Made by a program: the position numbers and the translations under genes. The notes under the pieces were generated by a model. It was not told the DNA's origin, ran no database searches, and was given only the letters and a program-made list of their open reading frames with translations. A stretch of 54,618 bases of DNA from a virus (taxonomy: Duplodnaviria > Caudoviricetes): IMG/VR virus record IMGVR_UViG_3300025759_000009, positions 1 through 54,618 of that record. One strand, 5' to 3'. Shown here piece after piece: positions 1 through 54,618 of this stretch. Positions within the stretch are counted from its first letter, which is position 1, and each line of letters begins with the position of its first letter.

Positions 1-127
1 GCCGCTGCCAGTCGTCGTATAATCAACATCCGCAGCATAATCACTGTCCGTCAAATTAATCCCACCAGCAGCGTCAATAGCCGCGTTTAACTCATCAGAC
101 GTAGGCGTGTAATCCTCGTCGTCAAAA
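1..127. repeat. Terminal direct repeat, copy 1 (circular assembly overlap)
   Basis: 1-127 is identical to 54492-54618. 127 is a typical assembler k-mer length, and an ORF reads through the junction. Confidence 0.97.
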
Positions 128-927
128 TCAAGCGGAGTGTAAACGTCAGGAGTATCTGGCCCCTCAAAAGAATACCCTTCAAGATACCCACCAGATTCAC
201 CATCGTAAATTCCGCCATTTTTATTTGTAACTGTGCCATCACCGTTGTCTGTCCAGCCGTGGAGGGAAACAAGATTTTTTTCAACAGCATTTAACTCAGT
301 ATTAGTAGGAACCTCATCGTAAGTGCTGCCGAGGTTTGTGCCTTCTGTAACAAATATTGGAGTGTAATCAACACCAGAAGCATCAGAAATCCCCTGTATG
401 TTGGAAGTGTCAACGTAACTGTAATCATTGTCATTATCGCTGTAATCAACAGTATTGCCATAATTTACAGTGCTGGCACCCGGAGTCGATTCCGTGTAAA
501 TATTACCTGTGCCAAACGTATCATCAACGTAACTGTCATTAGCCGTATAACCACTGCCAGTATAACCGTCAGCCGTTTCAGCTAAAACATTCTGACCTCC
601 AATGCTAACCTCCTGACCTCCATAACCAGCATCAATCGCGTCATAGTAAGTATCAAATTCTGGTATGTCAGTCGTCGTGGTCGTAGTAGTGTTGTTGTCG
701 TCGTTGTCGGTGCTGTGCCCACCAACTGTACTAACCTGCGTACCCGGCGTGTTCGGGTCGGTGTCTAACTTAGGGCTGTTCGGATCACTGTAATCGTTTT
801 CATAAACCGTGGGAGGAGGTGCAGGGCTCGGGCTGTCGTCATTGTTACCCGTTTCGCCGCCGTTACTTTCAAAAGCAGCCATTTCCCAAAAGTTCAAATG
901 GCGCAAAGGCCCAAATAAATGTCTCAT
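1..927 (-). CDS. N-terminal part of a 1079-aa acidic Asp/Gly/Thr-rich putative virion protein spanning the circular junction (join 927..1 + 54491..52179)
   Basis: Manual translation from ATG at 927 (ATGA overlap with the upstream stop) gives MRHLFGPLRHLNFWEMAAFESNGG... It is open to position 1 and in frame with the 52179..54545 ORF (LTDSDYAADVDY). The ORF track misses it. Confidence 0.9.
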   Translation of the reverse strand, partial: MRHLFGPLRHLNFWEMAAFESNGGETGNNDDSPSPAPPPTVYENDYSDPNSPKLDTDPNTPGTQVSTVGGHSTDNDDNNTTTTTTTDIPEFDTYYDAIDAGYGGQEVSIGGQNVLAETADGYTGSGYTANDSYVDDTFGTGNIYTESTPGASTVNYGNTVDYSDNDNDYSYVDTSNIQGISDASGVDYTPIFVTEGTNLGSTYDEVPTNTELNAVEKNLVSLHGWTDNGDGTVTNKNGGIYDGESGGYLEGYSFEGPDTPDVYTPLDFDDEDYTPTSDELNAAIDAAGGINLTDSDYAADVDYTTTGSG

Positions 928-1346
928 GCTACCTTCCTATGCCACTTCTCATCGCGCTTACTGCCATCAGGATATAACCTTAAACCCTCAGCAGTAGCAA
1001 TCTCAGGGTGATTATCCCACATAAATTGCTGAATGTCCCGTATGAACTTAATCACATCCCTGCGACCAGCACGGCACTGAAACTTCGGAAAGAACAAAAT
1101 CAAGTCCTCAGACCAATCGCGCGCAAAAACCTCAGAACCATCCCAAGAATCATCGTCTATCTCGCTACGAGTGAAAAATCCCCATGTGCAATAACCAACA
1201 ACCTCACCGTCAACCCTATGAACAAAACACTTGTCATGCTCAATAGCACGGTAAACAGAATTGCGCGTAGCCCAAGAAGGAGTCTTGGCGTAAAAATTGT
1301 CGTTCAAAACCAACGACATAACTCTGCCAAGAAGATCGTAGTCCAT
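924..1346 (-). CDS. RTX-toxin-activating acyltransferase (HlyC/TAAT)-like protein, divergent
   Basis: The pattern LLGxVxxL...AI....VGYCTW....DW....LFF..F...G parallels HlyC ILGHVSWL...PAI...VAYCSW...EDW...WFIDWIAPFG. The catalytic His/Asp positions appear substituted. Confidence 0.65.
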   Translation of the reverse strand: MDYDLLGRVMSLVLNDNFYAKTPSWATRNSVYRAIEHDKCFVHRVDGEVVGYCTWGFFTRSEIDDDSWDGSEVFARDWSEDLILFFPKFQCRAGRRDVIKFIRDIQQFMWDNHPEIATAEGLRLYPDGSKRDEKWHRKVA

Positions 1347-1837
1347 CAGTAACGACCTAACCCATTAAACAAAGGAACAACACCGCCGCTCATCATCTGA
1401 ACCGGAGCACTCCCAACACTCGTATTGTCACCAACCATCCGACCCGGACCAGCAACACCCATCGGAGGACCCCCCATAGGCTGCATCGGAGGTGGAGGAC
1501 GCATCGCACCAATAGGAGCACCGCCAACTTGACCAAAACTCGCGCCCGGACCCTGTGGAGGCATAGCCTGTGGTGGCATAGGAACCTGCGGCATCTGAGG
1601 CATCTGCATCTGCCGTTGCTGAAACTGCTCCTTGCGATTGCGCAACGATGCCTTAAAACCAGCACGGCCCTTCGCACTGCCGCCAAAACCAGAAACAACA
1701 GAAGAATTGCTACCCTGTGAACCAGACACAGGAGGAGCCATCCCACCCAAGTTGGGCATCACTGGAGGTGCAGCGGGTGGAGGACCCATCGGACCACCCA
1801 TAGGAGGTCCCATCGGTGCAGTCATAACAGCGGCCAT
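1346..1837 (-). CDS. Pro/Met/Gly/Gln-rich low-complexity protein with C-terminal MSGGVV motif
   Basis: ORF track 1346..1873. More likely ATG at 1837 after AGGAG. Its stop overlaps the start of the next gene. Confidence 0.75.
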   Translation of the reverse strand: MAAVMTAPMGPPMGGPMGPPPAAPPVMPNLGGMAPPVSGSQGSNSSVVSGFGGSAKGRAGFKASLRNRKEQFQQRQMQMPQMPQVPMPPQAMPPQGPGASFGQVGGAPIGAMRPPPPMQPMGGPPMGVAGPGRMVGDNTSVGSAPVQMMSGGVVPLFNGLGRY

Positions 1838-1884
1838 GTAAAAATCTCCTGAATTACAAAGTAACCATAACAAGAACAGAAAAT

Positions 1885-2124
1885 TTAATCAATAACCTCC
1901 AACAATCCACTCCGCAACATGCTGCCAGCTAAAGCATCACGACTGTGAAAGTAATAATTATCACCGCTCCACTCACACATCTCAATCGCAGCACGCCGCA
2001 TGAAATCACGCTCGTTATGACCAAAACCAATACGATGACGACCCTGCATAACAGGTACAACCTCACCAGCACCCTGAGCGTCAAACTCAAAACTCTCGCC
2101 GTAATTTAACCTGTATCTAGGCAT
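1885..2124 (-). CDS. Hypothetical protein
   Basis: ORF in a tightly packed minus-strand operon; ATG at 2124 overlaps the upstream gene end. Confidence 0.7.
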   Translation of the reverse strand: MPRYRLNYGESFEFDAQGAGEVVPVMQGRHRIGFGHNERDFMRRAAIEMCEWSGDNYYFHSRDALAGSMLRSGLLEVID

Positions 2125-2689
2125 CAACAGCCCCCACAAATGAATTCGGAAAATGCTCCTCTAAACGAGCCGCATCACGCCACGTCAAATCACTCTTAAC
2201 CTCAGCATCTCCATCCCTAACACCATCCAAATGATCAGAACCCATAACAACACCATCGTAATCATGCGCAACACTGTGAGGCTCAACGCCATTCAACCAA
2301 CGCTGAATAGACATGAAAACACCACCACGAGGACCAAAAACACCACCGTGCAAATCGTCAGTCGCAACCTTAATCAAAGCGCCGCGAAAATCATCAGAAC
2401 CTCGAACCCGCAACAAATCATCGTCGCCAACCCAACGACCAGAATGCGAAAACAAAATGTCCCCGCCTAAATACATCTCGTAACTCTCAACATTCGGATG
2501 AGTGTGCTCAGGAATTATATAATTCGGTGGAACGATAAACAACTCAACCTGAAACGGGCCCTTGCGATACCAAACAACGCCAGTAACATCCTGAATCTTG
2601 TAACTCGTAACAATACCCGGAGGAATGTAACCAAAAACCTTCGCATTAGACGCAAAACCAAAAGCAAAACGATCAAGCTCTTTAGACAT
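2117..2689 (-). CDS. Cupin-fold metal-binding protein
   Basis: PEHTHPNVESYE (HxH...E) plus downstream LHGG cupin motif 2; GGAGG SD upstream. Confidence 0.75.
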   Translation of the reverse strand: MSKELDRFAFGFASNAKVFGYIPPGIVTSYKIQDVTGVVWYRKGPFQVELFIVPPNYIIPEHTHPNVESYEMYLGGDILFSHSGRWVGDDDLLRVRGSDDFRGALIKVATDDLHGGVFGPRGGVFMSIQRWLNGVEPHSVAHDYDGVVMGSDHLDGVRDGDAEVKSDLTWRDAARLEEHFPNSFVGAVDA

Positions 2690-3282: not shown

Positions 3283-4356
3283 TTATCGCGTCAATGTTTC
3301 AACGCGGTTGTGCCACCATTCGAACAATTCATCTGACAAGCCCGCCCATATTGACGGGTTGCCTATGCGGTGCTCTGGCAACAGTGTCGCGCCGTCTGTT
3401 GTGGTCTCAAAAGAAAACAAAACGGTGTATGATGTGTGATGCGTGCCGTCACCATAGCGCGCGCCGTTCGCTTGTTGTGTGTTGGTGACCACGGCGGCGT
3501 CACCAACGCGCGCTCTGATTTCAGAGACGGCGGCGCGAACACGTTGCTCTGAGCATCCGGTTGCATCCATGATTTCTTGCGTGGTTGCGCCACCATCTGA
3601 GCGCATCATGGAATATTGAACGCCAACGCGCGCGCCGCGTCTGAATGGCTGTTCGGGTGTATCGGTAACAATTGTTCGGGTGCCACCCTCAACGCGTGCC
3701 GTGTTGGTGTGTTCGACTAGGTTCAACAGGAATTTCACCCAATTGATAATCTTGTCGGCTTCAACGGTGCCGGACGCTTGGCGGAATTCAATTGTGCCGC
3801 GTGACCATGTTTCCAAATTAACGGCGGTGAATTTGCCGAACGTCAATTCGCGGATTGTTGTGGCGCGCTCAATGCGTGCAAGCGATAGCGGCGCGCAATA
3901 GCGGTTGTCGGTGCGTGAGCGCGGGAACATTGTGTTAATTGTCGATTGTTGCCGCGTATAGCGGTACATAATATCTTGAACCGCGACAAAATCCATAGGG
4001 TCAGCATATGCGCCTGTGATATAGCGGCCAGTTCTATGGCGCTCTAAAATGCTATCGCCACAAAAGCGAACGGCGTGCGTGTCGTCATTCAACGGCGCGT
4101 TGCCAATGTGAACGTGTAAACCGCACTTTGAATTGACGCGCGCGCCAACGCGGTCCAACACGCGGCAAATTTTCTTGATATAATCGAATGCGAAATCGCA
4201 CGCGGCCAATGGTGGCAACACGATTTCGGCGTCAACGCTTGGCGTGCCGTCCGGTTTAACGTCACAGCCGCGGATTTCGGCGTTGCTTAATGCGCTTTTG
4301 ATTGCGCTGATGCTAGCGCCGCTTGTTTCGATTTCTATTCCAAAGGTGTAAGTCAT
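3283..4356 (-). CDS. Putative amidoligase (Amidoligase_2 / COOH-NH2 ligase) with C-terminal winged-HTH (DUF3489-like)
   Basis: Motifs TFGIEIE, DGT..EIVLPPL, CGLHVHIG and TIEFRQ. The C-terminal GATTQEIMDATGCSEQRVRAAVS is HTH-like. Confidence 0.85.
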   Translation of the reverse strand: MTYTFGIEIETSGASISAIKSALSNAEIRGCDVKPDGTPSVDAEIVLPPLAACDFAFDYIKKICRVLDRVGARVNSKCGLHVHIGNAPLNDDTHAVRFCGDSILERHRTGRYITGAYADPMDFVAVQDIMYRYTRQQSTINTMFPRSRTDNRYCAPLSLARIERATTIRELTFGKFTAVNLETWSRGTIEFRQASGTVEADKIINWVKFLLNLVEHTNTARVEGGTRTIVTDTPEQPFRRGARVGVQYSMMRSDGGATTQEIMDATGCSEQRVRAAVSEIRARVGDAAVVTNTQQANGARYGDGTHHTSYTVLFSFETTTDGATLLPEHRIGNPSIWAGLSDELFEWWHNRVETLTR

Positions 4357-4552: not shown

Positions 4553-4662
4553 CATGTGTGTATATGTGTGTATATATGTGTGTATATATTTATGTATATA
4601 TACTATACCCCGACCCCGAACCCCGAACCCGAAAGCCCGAAGCCCGAAGCCCGAAGCCCGAT
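4553..4662. repeat. (TG/TA)n microsatellite followed by tandem CCCGAA(C/G) heptamer repeats
   Basis: tgtgtgtatatgtgtgtatatatgtgtgtatata... then ccccgaaccccgaacccgaaagcccgaagcccgaagcccgaagcccga. Confidence 0.85.
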
Positions 4663-5179: not shown

Positions 5180-5276
5180 GGTTACGCTGCCGGGCAAAAC
5201 CACTGGCGCACAAAACACTGCTGTAGGTTACGCTGCCGGGTAACACCACTGGATACAATAACACTGCTGTAGGTTA
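5180..5276. repeat. Imperfect 46-bp tandem repeat (2 units plus a partial third) between two palindromic motif copies
   Basis: GGTTACGCTGCCGGG...ACCACTGG...AACACTGCTGTA at 5180 and 5226; GGTTA again at 5272. Confidence 0.85.
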
Positions 5277-5500: not shown

Positions 5501-6025
5501 CTATTCGTCGGCTTCGCCGCTATAATCCGTTATAGGGATATGTTCGGGTTTTGTGGGATTTTGTTCAGGTGTTACGTCAATCATTCGATCTTTAGCACGC
5601 TGCATGAATTCTTGGAGTTGTTCAACGATTTGATCACGCGACAGGTTATCGACTGTTTCGTGCGTTACATGGCTACGAGCGACCATTAGGCCCGTCACTT
5701 TCAGGCGCAGTTCTTCTGCTTTGATTGCTGCACCGAAGTTCCCTGCTTCCCATGCTTCGTCCCGAAGTCTCTGCATATCCCGAACAGATTTCGTTATTGT
5801 GACCCCGTATTTGCTTTCGAGTTCTTGGCGCATTTCTTCCATGCGTTCTTTGACGCGCGGATTGTTTAGAAGCTGCACTGCTGATACGTTCGGGTTTTTG
5901 TATCCTGCTGCTCTGGCTGCTGCGGTCTGCGTCATATCTTTATGAATGTAGTTATCCAGAAACTTCTGCTGCGGTGGCGTTATTCGCTTTCCGCCTTTTT
6001 CGATTTGCTCCCCGACTTTCGGCAC
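5501..6025 (-). CDS. terS: Terminase small subunit
   Basis: ITPPQQKFLDNY...TQTAAARAAGYK...AVQLLNNPRV HTH signature and AAIKAEEL helix. Probable GTG start at 6025 (track start 6127). Confidence 0.8.
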   Translation of the reverse strand: MPKVGEQIEKGGKRITPPQQKFLDNYIHKDMTQTAAARAAGYKNPNVSAVQLLNNPRVKERMEEMRQELESKYGVTITKSVRDMQRLRDEAWEAGNFGAAIKAEELRLKVTGLMVARSHVTHETVDNLSRDQIVEQLQEFMQRAKDRMIDVTPEQNPTKPEHIPITDYSGEADE

Positions 6026-6135
6026 AACACTTTCCCCGCTTGATTTCCTGCCACACTCTACCGCGCGGCTTCGCCCCATGCAAGCCCAATAGTTCCCATA
6101 CTTCACATCAACATCATCAATCAACAATTACATCA

Positions 6136-33840: not shown

Positions 33841-36800
33841 TTAACAGGCCATCAGCACACATGGCACACAGTATGAACCATCGTCATATGTGCAGGTAAC
33901 GTGCGTTGATGTAACTTTAGCGATAGTCTTGCTGCGAACAATGTCATCACCTTGAGGTTTGGCTGTGCCATCACCCGCTGACATTAGCAGATCACCACGA
34001 GAAACTGTTGTGCCTTGAGCAATTCGGATGATTAAATCACCAGTCATAGCTACGTTCATGTCTGTGGTGTAATCTTCACGCTCATCCCAATTTACAAATA
34101 CACCCGCAACATTTGTATCACCTTCGACAGATGACACAGCCATGCAGTTAAGCTGTTCGTTATCTTCATCACCCCACACAGCCATTTGATCCAAGTTGGT
34201 CATAACTGTACCTTTAAGAAGGCCATCAATACGAGTGTTGTCTGCGGTCTGCGACCAGCGAGATAAGTGTCCACCGTTATAAGATACGGTTGTGCCTGAA
34301 ACGCTAATGGAACCTTCTTCGGTACCAGCACTACGCAGAGACAGGATAACACCATCTGCAAATCTATTAAACCCGTGATCGGCTCTACCCGAAGCCCAAA
34401 ACCTTGCGGTAGTTTCTACGCCATCAGAAGCAAAACCAACGCCTGAAACATTAGAGCCATTACCCGGAGTGGATGACGGCGTAGAGATGCTAGCTTCACC
34501 AAAATAAAAGTCCCCTCCAGAGGAGACACGCATTCTAGGAACCCCAGACCCATCCGACAGCACGATGTTGTTGCTTGAGGTGCGGAGGTCCAAGCCGCTT
34601 TGGTTGCCGTTGTAGCGTCCAAGGAAGGTGTTCCTTTCTCCAGTTTCAACAAGATATCCAGAGACTTCACCAATAAATGTGTTTTGCGCTCCTGTTGAAT
34701 ATTGACCAGCGTAAGCCCCCACAAAAGTGTTATAGGCACCTGTGCTGTTTGTAAATCCAGCAATATAACCCAAACTAGTGTTGCGGGTACCTGTGGTGTT
34801 GTTAGCTATTGCCTGATAGCCCACCCCTGTGTTCTTGTCTGCGGTGGTGTTGGATTGAAGTGCCTGACGACCCAACGCCGTGTTATAAGTGCCTGTCGTA
34901 TTTGCATACAACGAAACAGATCCGACCGATGTATTTTCGCTGCCTGTAGTAGTGCTACGGAGAGCGTCTCGACCAATAGCAACCATTTCTGCGCCACCGT
35001 TTGCGCTTTTAGCAGCACTACTCCCAATAGCTATATTGTTGTTTTGACTGGTATTTGACTGTAGTGCATAGCTTCCTATAGCAATATTTTGCACACCAGT
35101 GGTAGTGCCTTCTGCGGAAGCATACCCAATAGCCACATTGTCACCACCAGTGGAGCAAGTTTGCAAAGCAAATGCAGCAGCAGCGAAATTTCGGTATCCT
35201 GTTGTGATGTTTTGACCTGCTCTATGCCCAATACCTGTGTTGTAAGTACCCGTGCTAACATCATACAATGCTTGATAGCCAACGGCGGTGGTGCCAGTTG
35301 CAGTGGTATTACTGTATGCCGCCTGATACCCCACAGCCGTGTTGTTGCTGGCGGTGGTGTTGTTAGCTAAAGAATATGTACCCACAGACGTATTACTAGA
35401 ACCAGTGGTGTTTTGTAAGAAACTTTCTGCACCTACAGTTACGTTCTCTTGACCACTAGTATTATCCTCAAGCGCCCTATACCCGACTGCCGTGTTGTAG
35501 GATGCGGTGGTGTTGGCTTGGAGCGCAGACATACCAAGAGCCGTGTTGTAGGAGCCTGTTGTGTTCGAAACTAAGGAACTTTGCCCACTTGCCATATTAT
35601 TGATGCCAGAAGTATTGTTGTATAAAGCTGACATACCTAGTGCTACATTATTATAACCAGTAGTGTTGCTCCTTAGAGATCCATGACCAAATGCCGATAA
35701 GTTTACCCCTGTAGTATTAGTATAAGCAGCCTGATAACCAACCGCTGTGTTGTTGCCAGCGGTGGTGTTGGAACGAAGTGCATCCTTCCCCATTGCTGTA
35801 TTATAAGCACCCGTAGAGTTGCTTTGCAGAGAATCGTACCCGTAGGCTGAGTTGTTGCTGGCGGTGGTGTTGGAACCTAAAGCAGTCTGACCAAAACCAG
35901 AGTTGTTTTCTCCTGTCGTGTTATTAGACAATGTACCATAACCAACGGCTGTGTTTCTTGACCCCGATGTGTTGTCCCTCAGGGCTTCGTAACCAACGGA
36001 TGTCACAGCCTGACCTGACGTATTTGCAAAAAGAGCCTTATGCCCTACCGCAGTGTTTAAAGTGGTGGCGTTGTTATATAAGGCCTGATAACCGATTGCA
36101 GTTATTGAACTTTGGTTATTACTATAAGCAGCCTGATACCCAACAGCTGTGTTGTTACTGGCGGTGGTGTTGGTTTCAAGTGAGCTTTGCCCTAAAGCGG
36201 TGTTATAATTACCCGTTGTCGTGCTTTGCAAAGCATTTGTGCCAACACCTGTATTGGCGCTTCCTGTGGTGTTACTTAAAAGAGCCGTCCTGCCAACTGC
36301 AACAATCCCAGAACCAGTAGTATTAGCATTCCCCGCTTGATACCCAACAGCGGTGCTGTTGCTGGCGGTGGTGTTGTTTTCTAATGCTTCTGCCCCAAAA
36401 GCCGTGTTGTTGGCACCTGTGGTATTGTCGTATAACGCACTATATCCAACTGCGGTATTATAGCTTGCATTTGAGTTAGTATAAAGTGCCCGCCAACCCA
36501 ACGCAGAATTATAATACCCAGTTTCGTTAGAGAATAATGCAGTATGACCAACCGCTGTGTTGTAGTACGCTGTAGTGTTTGAGCCTAACGCCCCTCCACC
36601 AACGGCTACGTTGCTCCCACCTGTAGTATTTGCATCTAAAGCTGTGCTGCCAACGGCAGTGTTATTCAAGCCTGTTTCATTGGAAAGCATGGCATTGTAA
36701 CCAATAGCCGTGTTTTCATACCCTGAAGTGTTTGCGGTTAGAGCAGATGTGCCTACCGCTGTGTTAAAATTACCGCCAGTGATTATTGCATCTAATGCAT

Positions 36801-37806
36801 TATTACCCAACGCCACGTTATTGGAACCCGTAGGATAATTCCCGTCCAGCTTGATCGTGCCGCCATCGACTGACAGGTTGCCAGCTACAGTTAAACCGTC
36901 CGTGACGGCTGTGCCTGTGATGTCTACGCCAGAAGTCGTTGTAATTATTTTTTCAGCGTTATCGTAGTATAAAGAAACACCCGCATCGACCTCCGCTAAA
37001 ATCATTCTTTCAGTGTTACCTGTGTTTCGTAATTCAAAGTTACCTGCGAGGATACGCAGGTTACCCTGACCCACGTCACCCACATAACTATGAGTCCCAT
37101 CATGGTAAAGCTGTAGGTCAGACCCTGCGCCGAAGATGGCTTTGTCGTCGTCACCGAACAGGATGTCATTACCACCTGTCGTGTTGCCGTTAGCAAGAAC
37201 CTCGGACAGTTCGTTGTTTGCACCAACCTGCGCGTCAACGTAAGCCTTGATGGACTCAGATGTCGCAATGTTCGTCGCAGTCGCCGTACCCATTGTATCG
37301 TCGTCAATAATCGCGGTCACAGACACTCCGCCCAAGCGCAGGCTGTCAAAGTACGCATTGTTAAAGACGTTCGCAGCTACAGCACCAGAACCAGCGCCGT
37401 CAAAGTAAACAACCGCAGTCGTCCCCGCGGGAACCTCATAATCGTTGCTCGCGTTGTACGTCCCTTGAAACAGGATAATGCTGCGCGATCCTGCCAGATT
37501 GTTGCGCACATAAATGATCTTTTCAGAGTCGTTCGGCGTCAACTGCACAAAAGCCGTCGCGCCCAAGTCGCCGCCGTCGGCAAATGTAACCATGCGGTTT
37601 CGGCCATCGGACGCCTCACCGTCTGTAATCGCTAGAGGGTTCGGAGAACCAGATGTCCCCGCACTCGGCAATGTGACAGTAACCTGACCGTCAAGAGCCG
37701 TATCCAAAAGACTTAGGTTTGTGTTCGTTGTATCGCCCCATGTACCGGACTGTTCGCCTGTGCCGATAAGCTCGATACCGTTGTTTAATGTATATGTACT
37801 AGGCAT
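33841..37806 (-). CDS. Tail fibre / receptor-binding protein with many 14-aa NTAVG..AL..NTTG beta-roll repeats and C-terminal chaperone-like domain
   Basis: N-terminal virion anchor (GEQSGTWG.TTNTNL); YadA-head-like repeats; C-terminal GDLL.S.GDG.AK.Q.DD..RSKTIAKV...VPC.L.C. Confidence 0.85.
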   Translation of the reverse strand: MPSTYTLNNGIELIGTGEQSGTWGDTTNTNLSLLDTALDGQVTVTLPSAGTSGSPNPLAITDGEASDGRNRMVTFADGGDLGATAFVQLTPNDSEKIIYVRNNLAGSRSIILFQGTYNASNDYEVPAGTTAVVYFDGAGSGAVAANVFNNAYFDSLRLGGVSVTAIIDDDTMGTATATNIATSESIKAYVDAQVGANNELSEVLANGNTTGGNDILFGDDDKAIFGAGSDLQLYHDGTHSYVGDVGQGNLRILAGNFELRNTGNTERMILAEVDAGVSLYYDNAEKIITTTSGVDITGTAVTDGLTVAGNLSVDGGTIKLDGNYPTGSNNVALGNNALDAIITGGNFNTAVGTSALTANTSGYENTAIGYNAMLSNETGLNNTAVGSTALDANTTGGSNVAVGGGALGSNTTAYYNTAVGHTALFSNETGYYNSALGWRALYTNSNASYNTAVGYSALYDNTTGANNTAFGAEALENNTTASNSTAVGYQAGNANTTGSGIVAVGRTALLSNTTGSANTGVGTNALQSTTTGNYNTALGQSSLETNTTASNNTAVGYQAAYSNNQSSITAIGYQALYNNATTLNTAVGHKALFANTSGQAVTSVGYEALRDNTSGSRNTAVGYGTLSNNTTGENNSGFGQTALGSNTTASNNSAYGYDSLQSNSTGAYNTAMGKDALRSNTTAGNNTAVGYQAAYTNTTGVNLSAFGHGSLRSNTTGYNNVALGMSALYNNTSGINNMASGQSSLVSNTTGSYNTALGMSALQANTTASYNTAVGYRALEDNTSGQENVTVGAESFLQNTTGSSNTSVGTYSLANNTTASNNTAVGYQAAYSNTTATGTTAVGYQALYDVSTGTYNTGIGHRAGQNITTGYRNFAAAAFALQTCSTGGDNVAIGYASAEGTTTGVQNIAIGSYALQSNTSQNNNIAIGSSAAKSANGGAEMVAIGRDALRSTTTGSENTSVGSVSLYANTTGTYNTALGRQALQSNTTADKNTGVGYQAIANNTTGTRNTSLGYIAGFTNSTGAYNTFVGAYAGQYSTGAQNTFIGEVSGYLVETGERNTFLGRYNGNQSGLDLRTSSNNIVLSDGSGVPRMRVSSGGDFYFGEASISTPSSTPGNGSNVSGVGFASDGVETTARFWASGRADHGFNRFADGVILSLRSAGTEEGSISVSGTTVSYNGGHLSRWSQTADNTRIDGLLKGTVMTNLDQMAVWGDEDNEQLNCMAVSSVEGDTNVAGVFVNWDEREDYTTDMNVAMTGDLIIRIAQGTTVSRGDLLMSAGDGTAKPQGDDIVRSKTIAKVTSTHVTCTYDDGSYCVPCVLMAC

Positions 37807-37815
37807 TTTTCGATC

Positions 37816-38601
37816 CTATGCTGCTATGTCATCCCAGCTTGGAGTTTGAGACGGTGTTTCGTCACTCCACGCAGGGGTAGAAGATGGTGTTACGGGACTA
37901 TAACCCGGATTTTGATTTGGAACAATACGTCCCCATACAAGAACTTGACCTGCCTCGCCAGTTCCTTCGACGCCAATTACAAGAACATCTGAGTTTGCTG
38001 TGATTGAAACTTCGCCAACTTCACCTGTGCCTTCAACACCAGTGACATTAACATTGACAACAATTTCCACGATAACGGAGCCAACAGTGCCTGTCGCCTC
38101 TAATCCTGTAACAGGCGCATTAGCGCCCGCAATAACCTCAATAAAGCCGCCGTAGACAAAACCTTGAGCCTGTAGTCCGCTTGGTATCTCTACAGTTGCG
38201 TCTGCCTCAACAACAACGCCGCCCTCTGCTGTTGTTGCTTCAAGTCCAGTAACAGGAACATTCGCTCCACCCACAACAGCAGCAGTGCCAACCTCACCCG
38301 TAGCCTCAACACCTGTTGGGAATACATTAGCCTCGGCAACAACCGAAACACTGCCAACGCCGCCAACGGCTTCAAGCCCCGTTACCGGGACATTGGCCTG
38401 ACCAGTCGCCGTTACTGTGCCAACGCCGCCTGTCGCCTCTAAGCCCGTTACGTCAACATTGGCCTCGGCAATAACCGAAACAGACCCCACCGCTCCTGTG
38501 GCGGAAACACCGTCCACAAAAACCTTGAGGATAGGAGTGCCAAAAGAACCATCACTCCAAGTGGATCGACCCCACCCTTCATATAGAGTTGACGAGGCCA
38601 T
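37816..38601 (-). CDS. Tail-associated protein with ~20-aa VTGLEATGxVGxV repeats
   Basis: Tandem Val/Gly/Thr/Glu repeats; located in the tail module. Confidence 0.75.
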   Translation of the reverse strand: MASSTLYEGWGRSTWSDGSFGTPILKVFVDGVSATGAVGSVSVIAEANVDVTGLEATGGVGTVTATGQANVPVTGLEAVGGVGSVSVVAEANVFPTGVEATGEVGTAAVVGGANVPVTGLEATTAEGGVVVEADATVEIPSGLQAQGFVYGGFIEVIAGANAPVTGLEATGTVGSVIVEIVVNVNVTGVEGTGEVGEVSITANSDVLVIGVEGTGEAGQVLVWGRIVPNQNPGYSPVTPSSTPAWSDETPSQTPSWDDIAA

Positions 38602-40683: not shown

Positions 40684-40958
40684 TTCTTTTTCCTTTTAAG
40701 AGACTTAACTCTTTTTGGCTTGCCAGCAGGCTGTCCAAGTCGCTTCTTTTGTGCCACTCTACTACGCTTTTCGCTCGTTGTCATCTCTGAAGCGGTCTTG
40801 GGTGTCTTTGAGTTAACGCGCTTGCTTGGTCGGCAGTAAGGAGTTCCTCGCTTTTCGCCTTCTTTGCGACCACAGGCTTTACCAGTGCGGACATCTTTCC
40901 AGTCCTCTTTGAACCATCTCTTTAAAGCAGCGCCTTTTTTCGTTTTTCTAACAGCCAT
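40680..40958 (-). CDS. Small Lys/Arg-rich protein (DUF5872-like)
   Basis: LKRWFKE.W.DV.TGK.CGR...PYCRP.KRV..KTPKT. Confidence 0.75.
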   Translation of the reverse strand: MAVRKTKKGAALKRWFKEDWKDVRTGKACGRKEGEKRGTPYCRPSKRVNSKTPKTASEMTTSEKRSRVAQKKRLGQPAGKPKRVKSLKRKKK

Positions 40959-41236
40959 TAGCTCATCTTCGTTACTTTACGGCGATTTGAGGCAACCTTA
41001 CCGCATCCATTCGCGATAACCTCTCCACCAGCCATCATACGACGCACTGGACGCTTACGATACTCGTTAGATGGCCCAATAGCGCCACCCATAGCCTTCT
41101 TTACAGGCTTTTTCTTGCTGTTTCCCCAGTTTTTAGCACCTACTTTACGACACTTTGCGATTGCGCCGCTTGCGTATGCGCTTGGGAACACTTTGTACCT
41201 TGCTTTTACCTTTTTGTAGCACGCGTCCTTTGGCAT
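40958..41236 (-). CDS. Small basic protein with MxxGG motifs
   Basis: KDACY.KVK.RYKVFPSAYASGA; AMGGAI, MMAGGEV. Confidence 0.75.
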   Translation of the reverse strand: MPKDACYKKVKARYKVFPSAYASGAIAKCRKVGAKNWGNSKKKPVKKAMGGAIGPSNEYRKRPVRRMMAGGEVIANGCGKVASNRRKVTKMS

Positions 41237-49468: not shown

Positions 49469-49911
49469 TAGAAAATATCCTTTTCGTTCCCCTCAAGCGG
49501 CTCATAAATGTCAACGTCATCGAAATCGGTGATAGGGCCACCCTTTTCCCAATCGTTACACACATTCTCCGCCATGCAGGTGAAGTCTAACTTTTCGCAG
49601 TACCCAACTTCATCGCCATCTTCCATGCCAATGCCACTTTGCACACAGTCCAGCATCTTAGAGCGAATGTTGTAATATTCGCAAGTGCCGCATATCTGCT
49701 TCTTCTTTTCCCAGTTTTTAACTGAGTGGCCGTAACCATTGTCCTGAATAGCAGCTTCACGATTCTCATCGTTGATTTTCGAATCTTGAGTGGAAAGAGG
49801 ACAAATGAAGTCCTCCTCCGTTTCATCGCCCTCAAAAACCTCGTCATCAACAACTTGGTTAATGCCAGACGTAAGCTCGTCCATGTCGATGTTGATAACG
49901 ATTTTAGCCAT
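49468..49911 (-). CDS. Acidic Cys-rich protein (HiPIP-like CxxC...C...CxxW spacing)
   Basis: CGTCEYY...GYCEKLDFTC....VCNDW. Confidence 0.7.
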   Translation of the reverse strand: MAKIVINIDMDELTSGINQVVDDEVFEGDETEEDFICPLSTQDSKINDENREAAIQDNGYGHSVKNWEKKKQICGTCEYYNIRSKMLDCVQSGIGMEDGDEVGYCEKLDFTCMAENVCNDWEKGGPITDFDDVDIYEPLEGNEKDIF

Positions 49912-50303
49912 TACTTTACTCCAGAAAACTTAGTGCCACTAACAGCAGCGCCACCGCCACGGCATACGCCGCCACCGTCTTTGTAGCCACGGACTTTACC
50001 GCCGCCCATATACTTCTTGACAGCCCCGCCCTCCATGTACTTCATGGCGGCGTCATTTCCGTAACTTCGAGCAATCATATCTCCATAAGTGTATGCTGAA
50101 GTTTTGCCACTCTCTTCGGGAGTTATTTTCCCTTCTTTTCTCCTATTCTTAATAGAACGGTCAATTAACCTTTCTATTTCCGCGCCTCGGGACGGGCGAT
50201 TGAGCATCTGTTCTTTTGCCTCGTCGGACATAAAAAGTTGAGCACCAGAACGGGCCTTTGAAGTCTTGAGCTTCTTTTTTCTCTTATCTGCATAATTAGC
50301 CAT
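49911..50303 (-). CDS. Small basic protein with repeated YxxGGxV motifs
   Basis: KYMEGGAV KKYMGGGKV RGYKDGGGV...GTKFSGVK. Confidence 0.75.
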   Translation of the reverse strand: MANYADKRKKKLKTSKARSGAQLFMSDEAKEQMLNRPSRGAEIERLIDRSIKNRRKEGKITPEESGKTSAYTYGDMIARSYGNDAAMKYMEGGAVKKYMGGGKVRGYKDGGGVCRGGGAAVSGTKFSGVK

Positions 50304-50683
50304 TAGCTTTGTCCTTTGTATTTTCCGCCGCGTCCCTTCATGACACAGCCCATCTTTGGTTTTTTCGTGCGCTTAGTCCTAACAGCACCGCCGCTCTCAA
50401 AGCCCATAGGCTTCTTCATGCCGCCACTTTTCTTCCGCAGCATATTCATGACTCGCATCTTATCAGCGTCAGAAATAGTCTTACCGGACTCACCCATGCC
50501 CTGATTGAGCAAACGCATTAAACCTTCTGGGCTATAGTTCTCAGCAGGGTCAATGCCGCGTGTACCACCGCTGGGACTGGCACCAATCATATTCGGACGC
50601 GCCATAGGACGCCTTGATTTCATAGGGGCAGAACTGCCCATCGCCTCTTGCAAGGCCCTCATGATTGCTTGTTTATCTGCCAT
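50303..50683 (-). CDS. Small Met/Lys-rich protein with FESGGAV motif
   Basis: AGGAGG SD; ends GGKYKGQS. Confidence 0.75.
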   Translation of the reverse strand: MADKQAIMRALQEAMGSSAPMKSRRPMARPNMIGASPSGGTRGIDPAENYSPEGLMRLLNQGMGESGKTISDADKMRVMNMLRKKSGGMKKPMGFESGGAVRTKRTKKPKMGCVMKGRGGKYKGQS

Positions 50684-50692
50684 AACAGCCTC

Positions 50693-52174
50693 CTAATAAT
50701 ACTCGCGCTTGCGCCGCATAAACGCAGCCTCTTCTTCGTCATCATAGTCGGATGGAGTCATGATAAACCCACCCTGTCTAAAACGTAGTATAGCCTGTGT
50801 CATCGAATCCGCCAAGTCATCATGTTCACCATTGGGAAAAGCAGCACATTCTTCCATAACTTCATCAGAAAAATTAGTCTCAGGTGCCCAAACCATACCA
50901 CTCTCAAACACAGGCGCACACGCGTGCATACGCGTAAACTTATCAGCACCACGGCTCGGAGTAAACGGCGTCACGGGAATTCCCATACGGCGCAATTCCT
51001 GCGTCAAAGGCATACCACTCGCCTTCTGCTCAACCAAAACCATGTCAGGCTCATAGAGCTTATAAGACTCTAAAGCCGCTTCTTTTAGCTCAGGAAACTC
51101 CCAGCGACCACGCTCCGCGTCCAAAAGGATAATATCATCCTGACGCGTCTCCTCATTGTGAAATATACCCCAAGTCGTAATCGCACTGTAGTCAGCACGG
51201 TCACTCTTACTAAACGCAGTATCATAACTCTGAATGATATAGCTACACGCAGGAGGGTCTTCCTTCTGCCACATCTGCCACCACTCACGCTTGATAATCG
51301 CACCCTCTTCAGCAGTAGGGTTCTGCATGTACTGAGCATTCCACTTGCCAACAGGAATAGAAGCCTTAACACCCTCTAACTCATCAAGCGTCCAATACTC
51401 AGGCCACAAAGGCTCACCAGAGGGCATGATCGCAGGAAACTCCACAACCTCCCACTTGTCAGCACCCTTTTCACCCTGCTTACTTAAAACCTTTGCTGTC
51501 AAATCACGAATCGACCAACGAGTCATAACAATGATAATCGAGCCACCGGGCTGTAAACGCTGACGTGGGCCAGATGTGTACCAATCGTAAATGTGGTCTA
51601 AAGCCGTTACACTTAACGCATCTTGTTCCGAAACAGGGTCGTCAATGATAGCCAAATCCGCACCACGGCCAGCAAGAGCGCCCCCCACGCCCACAGCATA
51701 ATACTCACCACCGCCGTTAGTGCTCCAACGACCACTCGCCTTAGCGTCACTAGCCAAGCTGACATTCGGGAAAACATCTTTAAAATCCTCACTCTCGATT
51801 AAGTTCTTGATCTTGCGACCAAAACCAACAGCCAACTCAGCCGTGTGAGTCGCCTGAATAATTTTCAAATCAGGACGACGACCCATCAACCAAGTTGGAA
51901 ACAAATAACTCGCAAACTCAGACTTCGTATGTCTCGGAGGCATGTTAACAATAAGCCGCTTTAACTTACCGTCAGCCACATCTTGCAGCTTCTGTGCATA
52001 AATCTTGTGATGCCTGCCCTCAATAAACTGAGGCCAAACATGCTTCACAAAATCCATAAAACCGCCCTGCTTCGTATTGCGGTCGTCAAGCGTCTTTAAA
52101 CGCTCCAACATAGGAGCAACCTTAGCTAACTCCTCGTCAGTTAGAAACTTGGAAAAGTCGCTAAGGTCATTCAT
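50693..52174 (-). CDS. terL: Terminase large subunit
   Basis: NMPPRHTKS Walker A, GRGADLAIIDDP Walker B, VMTRW, SYDTA, VEQKASG, FPNG.HDDL.DS nuclease motifs. Confidence 0.96.
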   Translation of the reverse strand: MNDLSDFSKFLTDEELAKVAPMLERLKTLDDRNTKQGGFMDFVKHVWPQFIEGRHHKIYAQKLQDVADGKLKRLIVNMPPRHTKSEFASYLFPTWLMGRRPDLKIIQATHTAELAVGFGRKIKNLIESEDFKDVFPNVSLASDAKASGRWSTNGGGEYYAVGVGGALAGRGADLAIIDDPVSEQDALSVTALDHIYDWYTSGPRQRLQPGGSIIIVMTRWSIRDLTAKVLSKQGEKGADKWEVVEFPAIMPSGEPLWPEYWTLDELEGVKASIPVGKWNAQYMQNPTAEEGAIIKREWWQMWQKEDPPACSYIIQSYDTAFSKSDRADYSAITTWGIFHNEETRQDDIILLDAERGRWEFPELKEAALESYKLYEPDMVLVEQKASGMPLTQELRRMGIPVTPFTPSRGADKFTRMHACAPVFESGMVWAPETNFSDEVMEECAAFPNGEHDDLADSMTQAILRFRQGGFIMTPSDYDDEEEAAFMRRKREYY

Positions 52175-52178
52175 CCTA

Positions 52179-54618
52179 TTATCTCATGCCACTCATGAAG
52201 TTGTCTATATTGGGAGTCACAACACCGCCATTAGCAAACTTATCAATGTTACGCGTTACAACTCCGCCCTTGTTAAAGCTCGGGCGACGAATGGTTAGTC
52301 CACCCACTTTAGGCAGAGACGTTTCAGGCGGAGCAGGGTCGTCTATCACCGGCAATGGTATTCGCGGCTTGAGTTTAACTTTGCCTGTGCCGTCACCTAT
52401 TTCATCAATAGGCATACAAATGCCCTCTACTGGATCAAATTCAAAGCCCTCTTCACAAATCGGAATGTTATCGTCGTTGTCATTATCAACTCCTACTGTA
52501 GACGTTGTTGTAACCACGCCGTCCTCAGTGTTTGTGTAGCCACGATCAGAATCTACAATATCAATGTCAAACTCTTCACCGTCAGCATTCGCATTAGATG
52601 TTTTCACATCATCTACACCAATAGCGTCGCCAGTAACCTGAATTTTTCCATCTTCGTCGTAAAGAACTACCGTGTCGTTCTGACCATCGTTATCAGCGTC
52701 ATAGTTAGCTTCCGCAATGCCAACAACAGTCTTGCCATCATCGTCGTAAACAAACGTGCCGCCATTCTTGTAAGCATCAAGCTGCTCTTGAACATACTTC
52801 TTGTTTTGACCAACAATCGTAAAGTCCTCGCCAAAGACGCTCAATGGATTAATAAACAGATCAAAAGCACTAGCCGCAAAATCACCTAGCTTGTCGCCAA
52901 AGCTCTGCGCCGTCACATAATCACCAGCCTTGTAAATCGGCTCCCCGTCAGCACCAATTATTTCGCTGTCCTTCGCGTGACGCGCATTACTCAACAAGTC
53001 ATTTAGATAAGCCGTCTCAGCCGCATTCGGTGTCTGGCCGCGAGCACCATACAAAGCACGCTGCTCTTCGTCACTTAGTCTGACTGTAGAGTTTGGATCA
53101 TTAGGATCGTAGTTAGGATCAGATACCTTCGCCATAGCCGACAAATACAAGTCAGTACCACTCTGACCAGTCTCAGTAGACGCAGCCTGATTGATCTCTT
53201 GCTCGGTAGGTATGTCGGTAGTTGTAGCTGCTCCAGTGTCTTCCTGATTGTTCTGATCAGATAAGATGTCCAAGCCGCTCATGTCAGCTTCAGCGCGAGC
53301 TAGAGCCTCGTCAGAAGACACTGAAGTCTCAACGGGACTCATGCCTAAATCCATTCTGTAATCACGAAGGGCTTCAGCGCCTTCATTTTGGAAAATATCC
53401 GCCGCATCTTCGATGGCTTCAATATCACTGGTTGTCTTATCAACAAGGAAGTCAGGAACAACATCGCTTTGTTCATCATTGTATAAATCTTGCTCAAACG
53501 CCTCTAAGCCAGTTAGGGAAGGGTCAGTGAAGTCCGTATCAACCAAGCTATCAAGGTAATTCTGAAACGCTAAGTCTTTGCCAGCCTCAGCTAAAGTCTC
53601 ATTCGGCACAAGTGATTCCTCTAAAGCATCCCTTTCATTAATCAAAGCCTCTAGTTCAACATTGCCGTCAGTAGAAACCGTACTAAAGTCAGTAGATAGG
53701 TCATCGTCCGTAGCTCCAACCCCAGTAGGAATCGCACTAAAGTCTGTGGCAAGATCGTCGTCTGTAGCTCCAACACCAGTATTAACAAAATCTAAAGCAT
53801 CGTCAGGCAAGTCATCAACATAGTCATAACGACCAGTATCTAATCCACCAGAAGCACCCAACGCCTGATCGCCATCGTAAGTAATCGGAGCATCATCACC
53901 ACCAAGAGCCATGTCAGTTATAGCCGAAGGTGTTTTATTAGCACCCTCAAGATTAATACCCGTATCACCAACCTTGGTCAAAGCATCAACATCAATTGGA
54001 GCGACGCCAAGCTCGCCTAAAAGCTCATTCGTTTCATCCAAGAAACTAAAGTCCAAAGGCTCTAAATCATAATCAGTGTCACCAGTCAGTATGTTCTCAC
54101 GCATACTGTCAATCTCTTCATCAGAAACACCAGCACTACTTAAAATATCCGCGTAACTTATTTCAGAACCAGTCGGATCAGGAACCGCCGAAGAAACAGG
54201 CTGTGACATGACCGTGTATTCGTCTTCGTCATACGCCTCGCGCTGGGCCGCAGCATTTGCCGCTGCTATCTCAGCAGCCGTAGGCTCATCAAAAGCCGCC
54301 GCCATATTAGCCGCCGCTTGCGCCGCAGCCTGTTCAGCCGCCGCATCAGCCGCAGCCGCTTCAGCTTGCGAGCCATAAGGGTTTCCAAGAGCGTCATAAT
54401 AAACAGAAGGTGGAGCAGGAGGATCAAGATCAGGAATAGGAGCTACATAAAGATCATCATCATCCGCAGTGGCAGTAGACGTGTAATCAGAGCCGCTGCC
54501 AGTCGTCGTATAATCAACATCCGCAGCATAATCACTGTCCGTCAAATTAATCCCACCAGCAGCGTCAATAGCCGCGTTTAACTCATCAGACGTAGGCGTG
54601 TAATCCTCGTCGTCAAAA
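52179..54618 (-). CDS. C-terminal part of the 1079-aa acidic putative virion protein (continues from 927..1)
   Basis: Very Asp-rich; duplicated TGVGATDDDL.TDFS; CEEGFEFDPVEGICMP Cys motif; two terminal FxxGGVV repeats. Confidence 0.9.
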   Translation of the reverse strand, partial: FDDEDYTPTSDELNAAIDAAGGINLTDSDYAADVDYTTTGSGSDYTSTATADDDDLYVAPIPDLDPPAPPSVYYDALGNPYGSQAEAAAADAAAEQAAAQAAANMAAAFDEPTAAEIAAANAAAQREAYDEDEYTVMSQPVSSAVPDPTGSEISYADILSSAGVSDEEIDSMRENILTGDTDYDLEPLDFSFLDETNELLGELGVAPIDVDALTKVGDTGINLEGANKTPSAITDMALGGDDAPITYDGDQALGASGGLDTGRYDYVDDLPDDALDFVNTGVGATDDDLATDFSAIPTGVGATDDDLSTDFSTVSTDGNVELEALINERDALEESLVPNETLAEAGKDLAFQNYLDSLVDTDFTDPSLTGLEAFEQDLYNDEQSDVVPDFLVDKTTSDIEAIEDAADIFQNEGAEALRDYRMDLGMSPVETSVSSDEALARAEADMSGLDILSDQNNQEDTGAATTTDIPTEQEINQAASTETGQSGTDLYLSAMAKVSDPNYDPNDPNSTVRLSDEEQRALYGARGQTPNAAETAYLNDLLSNARHAKDSEIIGADGEPIYKAGDYVTAQSFGDKLGDFAASAFDLFINPLSVFGEDFTIVGQNKKYVQEQLDAYKNGGTFVYDDDGKTVVGIAEANYDADNDGQNDTVVLYDEDGKIQVTGDAIGVDDVKTSNANADGEEFDIDIVDSDRGYTNTEDGVVTTTSTVGVDNDNDDNIPICEEGFEFDPVEGICMPIDEIGDGTGKVKLKPRIPLPVIDDPAPPETSLPKVGGLTIRRPSFNKGGVVTRNIDKFANGGVVTPNIDNFMSGMR
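54492..54618. repeat. Terminal direct repeat, copy 2 (circular assembly overlap)
   Basis: Identical to 1-127. Confidence 0.97.

Follow-up and report, generated by a model that had tools for sequence, protein, structure and literature searches.

In the present study, a 140-amino-acid (aa) protein resembling the toxin-activating acyltransferases (TAATs; HlyC family, PF02794) was examined together with the giant acidic protein encoded directly after it in a marine podophage. The window, that is, the whole 54,618-nucleotide (nt) stretch of IMG/VR record IMGVR_UViG_3300025759_000009, is a complete, terminally redundant phage genome of 54.5 kb. By profile comparison, the 140-aa protein is a true but strongly diverged, phage-specific member of the TAAT/HlyC superfamily. 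Both residues of the catalytic dyad of this superfamily are replaced, and the gene accompanies a particular N-terminal leader of the giant protein. Herein, we propose that the 140-aa protein is a leader-binding pseudo-acyltransferase serving as a chaperone or adaptor, a reading to which we would assign a probability of roughly 45%. The argument turns on the following open reading frames (ORFs) and sites.

924..1346, minus strand: TAAT/HlyC-like gene, 140 aa (Pfam and profile searches)
932..938, minus strand: Shine-Dalgarno-like AGGAAGG of the giant ORF, within the end of the TAAT-like gene
1..927, minus strand: 5' part of the giant acidic ORF, residues 1-309 (open-ended ORF of 309 aa)
52179..54491, minus strand: 3' part of the giant acidic ORF, residues 310-1079 and stop
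856..927, minus strand: leader codons (MRHLFGPLRHLNFWEMAAFESNGG), then a Gly/Ser/Asp/Asn-rich linker (leader conservation)
52179..52511, minus strand: C-terminal conserved module of the giant protein (homologue alignment)
50693..52174, minus strand: large terminase subunit, terL (phrog_38, E 4e-114)
54492..54618, identical to 1-127: terminal direct repeat of 127 nt, the junction hiding the giant ORF (repeat comparison)

In RTX systems, hlyC precedes hlyA, internal lysines are acylated using acyl-acyl carrier protein (ACP), and TAATs have a GNAT-like fold. An earlier note on this DNA, made from the sequence alone, had called the 140-aa protein HlyC-like, and several comparisons bear this out. 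On its own, the protein matches Pfam only weakly (PF02794, E 2.4e-4, 21.4 bits, with the cut-off at 25). Among 5.8 billion proteins, 63 candidates were obtained, 60 of which are relatives, all of about 140 aa; six of the relatives carry the JGI name 'hemolysin-activating ACP:hemolysin acyltransferase', 11 have a precomputed PF02794 match, and HlyC and no other family was matched by 21 of 34 aligned clade members. A profile search of 1.84 billion cluster representatives returned only 45 proteins at E up to 0.001; when 27 of these distant representatives were scanned, PF02794 alone was found in 26, with 16 above the cut-off. Against the PDB sequences, a profile of the clade alone gave chance-level matches only, ApxC not being among them, and a wider profile built from 31 family members, distant ones included, matched ApxC (4whn_A) at E 1.6e-10, with profile positions 5-133 aligned to chain residues 19-141. 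In addition, hhalign related the window clade to the Asp-bearing clade that passes the Pfam cut-off with 99.75% probability (E 2.8e-27), and the neighbours in the ESM Atlas were all viral clusters with HlyC on 38-43% of members. Thus, homology to HlyC is secure because of the profile searches, despite the sub-threshold Pfam score of the protein itself. A tblastn comparison with 50,697 phage records gave no match for the 140-aa protein or for the sister-group member P0066, and P0085 and gp30 of Roseobacter phage CRP-235 each matched CRP-235 only. A longer, fused form of the TAAT-like protein of the window was not found, which is weak evidence.

The alignment with ApxC also revealed how far the active site has changed. 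ApxC His24 (CdiC His37) aligns with Tyr19, a position occupied by Tyr, Phe or Trp across the clade, and ApxC Asp93 (CdiC Asp107) aligns with Lys88, which is nearly invariant; the Tyr/Phe/Trp replacement was present in all 37 Lys-type loci where the position is readable. Since Tyr19 and Lys88 lie in the NFY and FPKF stretches that the earlier note had singled out by eye as replacing the catalytic His and Asp, that call was correct. Cys91, which is new and invariant in the clade, lies within FFPKFQCRAGRR, the motif with the highest conservation in the family. Sister-group proteins have Q, T, H, S, L, M or N at the Asp position. Arg123 matches ApxC Arg121 and Asn29 adjoins the column of ApxC Asn35, two residues which we take to have roles in ApxC. 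On a tree of 69 distinct TAAT-like proteins (13 of 107 rows dropped as fragments and identical rows merged), each of these traits changed a single time: Asp and His were each lost once, and Cys was gained once. According to the relevant passages of a report on CdiC (PMC8510554), TAAT catalysis relies on a His/Asp dyad, in which Asp takes a proton from the acceptor lysine and His donates one to the ACP thiolate; substitutions in the dyad behave like a null, and ApxC with His24Ala kept residual activity. With the dyad gone from the window clade, acyl transfer to lysine would most likely be lost.

The 140-aa protein and the giant protein are tightly coupled at the DNA level. Bases 1-127 and 54492-54618 are 100% identical, and the IMG/VR record gives direct terminal repeats and a completeness rating of 100%. 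Once the repeat is removed, a single 1079-aa ORF reads across the junction (the matching 5'-open ORF is 52179..54617 on the minus strand, 812 aa), and terL starts 4 nt past its stop. The DNA at the giant start reads ...AGGAAGGTAGCATGAGACAT, with the ATG at 927-925 and the TGA of the TAAT-like gene at 926-924, which confirms the ATGA overlap and the hidden 1079-aa ORF described in the earlier note, as well as the place of the pair directly upstream of terL in the morphogenesis operon. A pattern search of IMG/VR based on the family alignment yielded 41 loci, of which four end before downstream DNA, four (L040-L043) belong to a separate lineage and 33 are main-clade loci with downstream DNA. An ATGA overlap into an acidic ORF (isoelectric point, pI, 4.05-4.6) was observed in all 33: in 30 when the longest ORF is taken, in L034 and L035 when the ORF is read from the junction ATG, and in L032 on separate confirmation. 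The giant ORF is complete in 22 loci, and in 17 of these terL lies within 10 nt of it. In L040-L043, the TAAT-like gene stands between terL and the portal gene and is followed by a 168-215-aa acidic protein of a different kind. ATGA overlaps as such occur commonly in phages, but the conservation of this one in 33 of 33 loci exceeds chance. The synteny survey upholds both conserved adjacency and translational coupling. The giant gene shares one operon with terL: the sole strong terminator-like hairpin nearby (2965-2939) lies upstream of the pair, after an amidoligase gene, with no other strong terminator ahead of the giant gene, and promoter-like sites were not above the shuffled expectation.

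The giant protein has 1079 aa, 114 kDa, a pI of 4.05 and a net charge of -180 (150 Asp, 72 Glu, 23 Lys and 19 Arg), and the features quoted from it earlier, i.e. the leader and the DGKTVV, DGKIQV, TGKVK and DADNDG segments, are all present. It has no match to a Pfam or PHROG family, and it is carried by no cultured phage: nothing was found when its last 300 residues were compared by tblastn with the 50,697 phage records. Its length differs widely between loci, from 534 aa to more than 2006 aa, and conservation is confined to the leader and the C-terminus. The giant ORF evolves very fast and is hypervariable; at 93% terL identity, no more than 83 residues of the giant protein (L006), or 625 residues with 31% identity (L005), can be aligned. 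The leader, 20-25 residues long, follows in 26 distinct sequences the pattern M-[KRST]..F..L....[IVA][VA]-[FR]-[DE]-[STV]-x-G-G and leads into poly-Gly/Ser/Asp. The C-terminal module consists of a two-Cys motif, C-[PE]-[ED]-G-[YFM]-x-x-D...C-MPI (also written, with its spacing, C-x-EG-[FY]-x-x-D-x(4)-C-MPI), a Pro-rich stretch, and F-x-x-GG-x-VTPNID-x-F-x-x-MR. The suggestion that internal Gly-Lys lysines are lipidated was rejected, as the flagged lysines are not kept even in the closest homologues (Lys896 and Lys925 in one of eight aligned homologues, Lys1013 in three of eight). Because the conserved feature of the partner is the N-terminal module and no lysine, RTX-style lysine acylation is unsupported as a conserved function. 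Double-glycine bacteriocin leaders have hydrophobic residues at -4 and -7; this identity was rejected for the leader of the giant protein, in which position -4 is Asp or Glu. A Sec or lipoprotein signal was likewise rejected, the leader being without a hydrophobic core and Cys replacing Phe in a few variants only. Separately, one giant homologue without a TAAT-like gene (L152:1912-6189) gave weak EF-hand and dockerin-like matches below the cut-offs, in agreement with the DxDxDG-type loop of the window protein (DADNDG, residue 907), which hints that the giant protein may bind calcium.

The distribution of the TAAT-like gene was compared with the N-terminal type of the large protein in an IMG/VR survey seeded on the C-terminal motif alone, independently of the TAAT-like gene. 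Among 65 loci, 36 were dropped, the large ORF running off the 5' end, and 29 complete ORFs were kept; 20 of these are leader-type, three of which, with less than 140 nt of upstream DNA, were not judgeable. A TAAT-like gene was found directly upstream in 17 of 17 assessable leader-type ORFs (hidden Markov model E 5.6e-37 to 1e-54) and in none of the nine loci with other N-termini, searched over the whole locus in six frames. Some of the 17 are on contigs of the 41-locus scan (L007 and L010 themselves, and L099, L101, L128, L131 and L140). The nine other N-termini are Pro/Gly/Met-rich (4), 'MNQDLMNRI...GQPHMLAYINPEE' (2), 'MARSEAEVQ' (2) or a short 240-aa form (1). In view of this split, the TAAT-like gene goes with the leader and not with the rest of the protein. 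Moreover, C-terminal identity to the window is 33-78% in the TAAT-positive and 35-55% in the TAAT-negative class, and since the two classes interleave, the N-terminal module has been exchanged repeatedly. In the Pro/Gly/Met-rich class, a separate 175-aa protein encoded upstream of the TAAT-like gene in the window is in effect fused to the large protein; L138, for example, reads ..GSAPVQLNMGGMVP.., then a GQPHYLAYINPEE module, then GGGGSSSS. Four relatives without a TAAT-like gene (L138, L152, L154 and L157) are single proteins of 1393-1503 aa whose N-terminal part corresponds to the 175-aa protein, and a GQPH[MY]LAYINPEE..GGIP module stands in place of the TAAT-like gene and leader of the window.

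The wider phage family includes TAAT-like proteins with more complete active sites. A total of 107 loci with a TAAT-like match was tabulated, six of them without downstream DNA, and the type of the TAAT-like protein was set against the start of its partner.

His plus Asp/Glu: 34 partners start M[GS]G
Tyr plus Asp: 12 partners with a leader, 6 start MG
Lys/Gln plus Cys: 45 partners with a leader
Met/Asn plus Cys (L040-L043): 4 partners of other kinds

In the Tyr/Asp group, which scores 46-57 bits against PF02794, Asp is retained and His is invariably replaced by Tyr. In L045-L053 the TAAT-like gene of this group is followed by an acidic partner of 700-1055 aa, whose C-terminus shares the two-Cys motif, and then by terL; these partners start with a leader or with MGAGNQGG, the latter having a clear AGGAG ribosome-binding site. 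Proteins of the Gln/Cys group (L054-L059) are encoded ahead of 654-667-aa acidic proteins starting MSRLYNPF..LLRDxDGGG. The partner in L074 starts MGGSKK and is not of the leader type. The intact-dyad group includes CRP-235 gp30 (57.5 bits to PF02794), annotated as 'putative toxin-activating lysine-acyltransferase', gp29 being annotated as 'hypothetical protein'. In IMG/VR, 34 of 34 intact-dyad loci with downstream DNA have an acidic ORF (length 424 to more than 998 aa) that begins at +1 or +2 nt, always with an AGGAG site and with the start MGG (30 loci) or MSGG (4 loci). No lysine is conserved among these partners, one of which has a single Lys, at an unconserved place. It is established that the initiator Met is removed before Gly or Ser. 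Because the M-[G/S]-G-G start occurs in 34 of 34 loci and no lysine is conserved, the N-terminal Gly or Ser exposed after Met removal is, on comparison of these loci, the only conserved candidate acceptor in the intact-dyad clade.

CRP-235 gp30 belongs to the same superfamily and shares with the window clade a motif absent from ApxC, G-x-E-V-[FYW]-x-R. Like the giant protein, gp29 is an acidic partner of variable length (pI 4.1) with an oligo-Gly N-terminal region, encoded directly after the TAAT. Unlike the window protein, gp30 keeps His and Asp, and gp29 starts MGGGGG without a leader, is of another protein family and is encoded among tail and lysis genes. The CRP-235 locus (L044, MZ892989, 7905-9804) consists of gp30, then gp29 starting MGGGGGD, then a lysozyme gene.

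With regard to the destination of the giant protein, 64 homologues of its C-terminal region were examined. A GH24 lysozyme domain (PF00959) occurs in six and an Amidase_2 domain (PF01510) in two, within a variable middle; all eight exceed the Pfam cut-offs, and the N-terminus is of the leader type in two of the lysozyme carriers. L138 and L145 also carry the lysozyme domain. In podovirus ejection proteins, as described in part of a report (PMC8954989), the peptidoglycan hydrolase moves between large late structural proteins. Because of these hydrolase domains and the operon shared with terL, the giant protein is most likely virion-borne and ejected into the host envelope. The earlier proposal of a packaged or ejected protein thus gains support indirectly, through the homologues; the window's own copy has no hydrolase domain. 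The precedent cited for it stands, in that P22 gp7 has a 20-aa N-terminal leader that is removed before assembly (PMC4992974, in the part dealing with gp7). Similar to the ejection proteins of T7 (gp14, gp15 and gp16) and P22 (gp7, gp16 and gp20), the giant protein is a large product of the late structural operon; the mosaic peptidoglycan-hydrolase domain of T7 gp16 has its counterpart in the eight of 64 homologues, and the 20-25-residue leader recalls that of P22 gp7. By contrast, no sequence similarity to the T7 or P22 ejection proteins was found, the giant protein is extremely acidic and of low complexity, it is without the membrane-spanning segments of the gp14 and gp16 homologues, and its gene stands before terL and not after the tail genes.

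Herein, we put forward the following mechanism for the window pair. The 140-aa protein would be dedicated to the giant protein encoded right after it, a modular 114-kDa polyanion that would be expressed late alongside the head and packaging genes, travel in the virion and be ejected into the host envelope. The two proteins would be linked functionally by the N-terminal module of the partner, i.e. the aromatic/hydrophobic leader of 20-25 residues, ending F-[D/E]-[S/T]-x-G-G, and the oligo-Gly/Ser linker. With His changed to Tyr, Phe or Trp and Asp to Lys, the former active-site cleft (FFPKFQCRAGRR) might hold the leader, with Lys88 facing the Asp or Glu of the leader. The protein would then act stoichiometrically, as a chaperone or adaptor that masks a membrane-active N-terminus or targets this N-terminus during assembly. 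Its ancestor may have been a phage system in which a catalytically intact TAAT acted on a free N-terminal oligoglycine. The leaders paired with Lys/Gln-type TAATs have Asp or Glu after the conserved aromatic residue (27 distinct leaders), and those paired with Asp-type TAATs have Gly there (7 distinct leaders) or give way to a free N-terminal Gly, a pattern which suggests direct contact at position 88 with reversed polarity. A complex prediction combining the TAAT-like alignment with a 50-residue leader alignment gave a score of 0.02, which speaks neither for nor against binding. In our view, a role as binder or chaperone is at least as likely as catalysis.

Several observations weigh against this reading. 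The former active-site strand and loop, FFPKFQCRAGRR, is the most conserved stretch and holds the polar residues Lys88, Gln90, Cys91 and Arg92, and Asn29 and Arg123 are kept, so that the conserved region would suit a binding cleft and a remodelled enzyme equally well. The TAAT-like proteins of 12 leader-type loci keep Asp, and a leader by itself therefore does not imply lost catalysis. The charge swap at position 88 has no statistical weight because it is a single evolutionary change on the TAAT tree. Finally, the giant protein of the window has neither a hydrolase domain nor a transmembrane-like segment (maximum 19-residue Kyte-Doolittle mean 1.19).

Three rival explanations were considered. 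It is possible, if somewhat doubtful, that the protein is still an acyltransferase with a remodelled active site, lipidating the giant protein at or near its N-terminal module; Cys91 might be the acyl carrier, with Lys88 and His43 as helpers and perhaps acyl-coenzyme A as donor, and the target might be the oligoglycine N-terminus after leader removal, with the lipid serving to anchor the protein in the host membrane once it is ejected; this is the main idea of the earlier note. The reading keeps some weight because no other part of the protein is as well conserved as the former active-site loop, which has an invariant Cys besides Lys, Gln and Arg, and because Asn29 and Arg123 stand at or beside ApxC Asn35 and Arg121. 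The residual activity of ApxC His24Ala and, outside RTX toxins, the lipidation of CdiA by CdiC, which aids target-cell binding, also favour it (both in passages of PMC8510554), as do the P22 gp7 precedent of leader removal (PMC4992974, same part) and the intact-dyad phage TAATs, which precede M-[G/S]-G-G acidic proteins without a conserved lysine in 34 of 34 loci. However, both dyad residues are replaced, including the Asp that is the key base (PMC8510554, catalysis passages), the Asp position varies in the sister group, and the Cys is Phe or Tyr in two of ten sister-group members, unlike a catalytic residue. An uncleaved leader would moreover block the N-terminal Gly, and no protease is evident; neither Lys nor Ser/Thr is universal in the leader, one lineage having FDVGG.

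Alternatively, the 140-aa protein might carry out a different catalysis on the leader, for example Cys91-dependent removal at ..F-[D/E]-[S/T]-x | G-G or a non-lipid transfer (aminoacyl or peptidyl), which we consider improbable. GNAT-fold enzymes include aminoacyl and peptidyl transferases, the Cys was gained in exactly the clade that lost Asp (one change each on the tree), all Cys-type loci of the Lys and Gln groups with a downstream ORF have leader-bearing partners (51 by one count, 45 in the list above), and the mature N-terminus would be oligo-Gly in every clade, through Met removal at MG starts or through leader removal. Nevertheless, we know of no protease with the GNAT-like TAAT fold, 12 loci pair Asp-type TAAT-like proteins without the Cys with leaders, and no His/Asp partner for a Cys triad is common to the whole Cys-bearing clade. 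An equally remote prospect is that adjacency reflects operon packing only, the target lying in the host or among the small basic, Gly-Lys-rich products of the genes that follow terL (49911..50683). Phage late operons are tight and ATGA overlaps common in them, two basic proteins after terL hold several G-K motifs, the TAAT-like gene of L040-L043 between terL and portal precedes a different small acidic protein, and marine virome work, in the part concerned with such genes, reads phage hlyC as a host-directed 'virulence gene' (PMC7003362). Packing would not explain why the 17 of 17 against 0 of 9 split ties the TAAT to the N-terminal type of the giant protein, nor why the pairing recurs in three TAAT clades and two unrelated contexts, before terL and in the tail/lysis region of CRP-235.

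Returning to the leader-binding pseudo-acyltransferase, a broader and rather unlikely extension is that abundant marine podophages encode a TAAT-derived system of their own for capping giant, DNA-like polyanionic ejection proteins at the N-terminus: intact-dyad lineages would fatty-acylate a free N-terminal oligoglycine, and in the window lineage a leader-clamping pseudo-acyltransferase would have taken over, the peptide leader replacing the lipid. If this were true, there would be a TAAT acting on an alpha-amine rather than on lysine, and phages would encode an equivalent of the myristoylated proteins that eukaryotic viruses use for penetration.

Comparison with known systems places these proposals in context. 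To the TAATs of RTX systems (HlyC, ApxC and CyaC; PF02794; 4WHN), the window protein is homologous over nearly its whole length; as there, a small protein of about 140-170 aa is encoded just before a very large, acidic, Gly/Asp-rich partner, and ApxC Arg121 is retained as Arg123. The differences are the change of His/Asp to Tyr/Lys, the new invariant Cys, a partner without a conserved Gly-Lys site, RTX nonapeptide repeats or type I secretion genes, and the setting in a phage packaging/head operon. In class IV contact-dependent inhibition, as presented in the excerpted parts of PMC8510554, CdiC is likewise a TAAT outside RTX, encoded within the delivery locus, that modifies a giant delivery protein for engagement of the target envelope, and it differs in keeping the His/Asp dyad and acylating one conserved Lys in the receptor-binding domain of CdiA. 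The window pair, in contrast, has lost the dyad and has no conserved Lys. Picornavirus VP4 and reovirus mu1N are N-myristoylated penetration proteins of non-enveloped eukaryotic viruses. The parallel with them is conceptual and concerns the MG-start systems only: a glycine N-terminus on an internal capsid protein released onto a membrane at entry. There, a host N-myristoyltransferase is used, whereas the phage would bring its own TAAT-type enzyme; the window protein has a leader ahead of its glycines, and acylation in phages is proposed only. The combination of a TAAT and a large partner is thus of a known kind, and what appears to be new is the phage packaging operon, the lost dyad and an N-terminal rather than lysine target.

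In the literature, hlyC is counted among the abundant phage 'virulence genes' in the relevant part of a marine virome study (PMC7003362), and a pelagiphage preprint, as far as its available text goes, has 'HlyC, toxin-activating lysine-acyltransferase' in a figure legend only. The main texts of PMC9599517 and PMC9038755 contain no hemolysin, HlyC or acyltransferase. Full-text searches turned up no work on phage TAATs or on the acylation of phage virion proteins, although supplementary gene tables may name such ORFs. Phage 'hlyC' genes have been annotated in passing in pelagiphage and roseophage genomes; the gene neighbourhoods described here show that they are probably not toxin activators, as they lie in a morphogenesis or tail module and are tied to giant acidic, probably ejected proteins. 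They offer a hypothesis for how short-tailed phages of oligotrophic marine bacteria bring an entry protein to the host membrane, and a natural series from an intact enzyme to a probable pseudoenzyme. Phage CRP-235, which is cultured and has the intact-dyad version, would be the most practical system for the question of N-terminal glycine acylation.

The genes preceding the pair in the operon, all read on the minus strand, are given below.

5501..6127, minus strand: small terminase, terS (Terminase_2, E 1.9e-10)
3283..4356, minus strand: Amidoligase_2 protein with a DUF3489/helix-turn-helix-like tail (E 3.9e-20)
2117..2689, minus strand: cupin-like protein (weak PCO_ADO match)
1346..1873, minus strand: Pro/Gly/Met-rich basic protein, 175 aa by longest ORF, start uncertain, ending ..GSAPVQMMSGGVVPLFNGLGRY

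An 84-aa ORF lies between the cupin-like gene and the gene of the Pro/Gly/Met-rich protein, and the stop of the latter overlaps the TAAT-like start. After terL follow three small proteins, the portal, a GroES-like protein, the major capsid protein, tail genes and a tail spike of 1321 aa. By terL, the closest cultured phages are Pelagibacter phages HTVC027P and HTVC023P and phage DSL-LC04 (about 56-60% identity). In HTVC027P and DSL-LC04 (terL about 60%), the pair of TAAT-like and giant genes is absent, and the proteins before terL are unrelated. The amidoligase and the cupin-like protein between terS and the TAAT cluster might, with the TAAT-like gene, form a protein-modification set; a link of the two to the pair was set aside, both accompanying it only in the closest clade and the terminator-like hairpin separating the amidoligase.

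Some minor observations were also made elsewhere in the window. The motif [MFY]-x-x-GG-[AVKE]-V occurs near the C-terminus of five head-module proteins on the minus strand (1346..1873, 52179..52260, 50303..50683, 49911..50303 and 40958..41236), in forms such as MMSGGVV, FNKGGVV, FANGGVV, FESGGAV, YMEGGAV, YMGGGKV and MMAGGEV, and the database protein P0097 (393 aa) has three such motifs fused ahead of a TAAT-like domain; the motif may be a shared docking or processing signal. Upstream of terS, the intergenic stretches 4554..4661 and 5180..5276 contain the simple repeats TGTGTATATATG (3.9 copies) and ACCCCGA (8 copies), and the same intergenic region has a 46-nt tandem repeat of 2.1 copies (GGTTACGCTGCCGGGCAAAACCACTGG...); these repeats could be a packaging or regulatory site. 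The tail-spike-like gene (33841..37806, minus strand) has 51-nt-periodic repeats with 13 copies of a 46-nt core, and the gene next to it (37816..38601, minus strand) has repeats spaced 66 to 141 nt.

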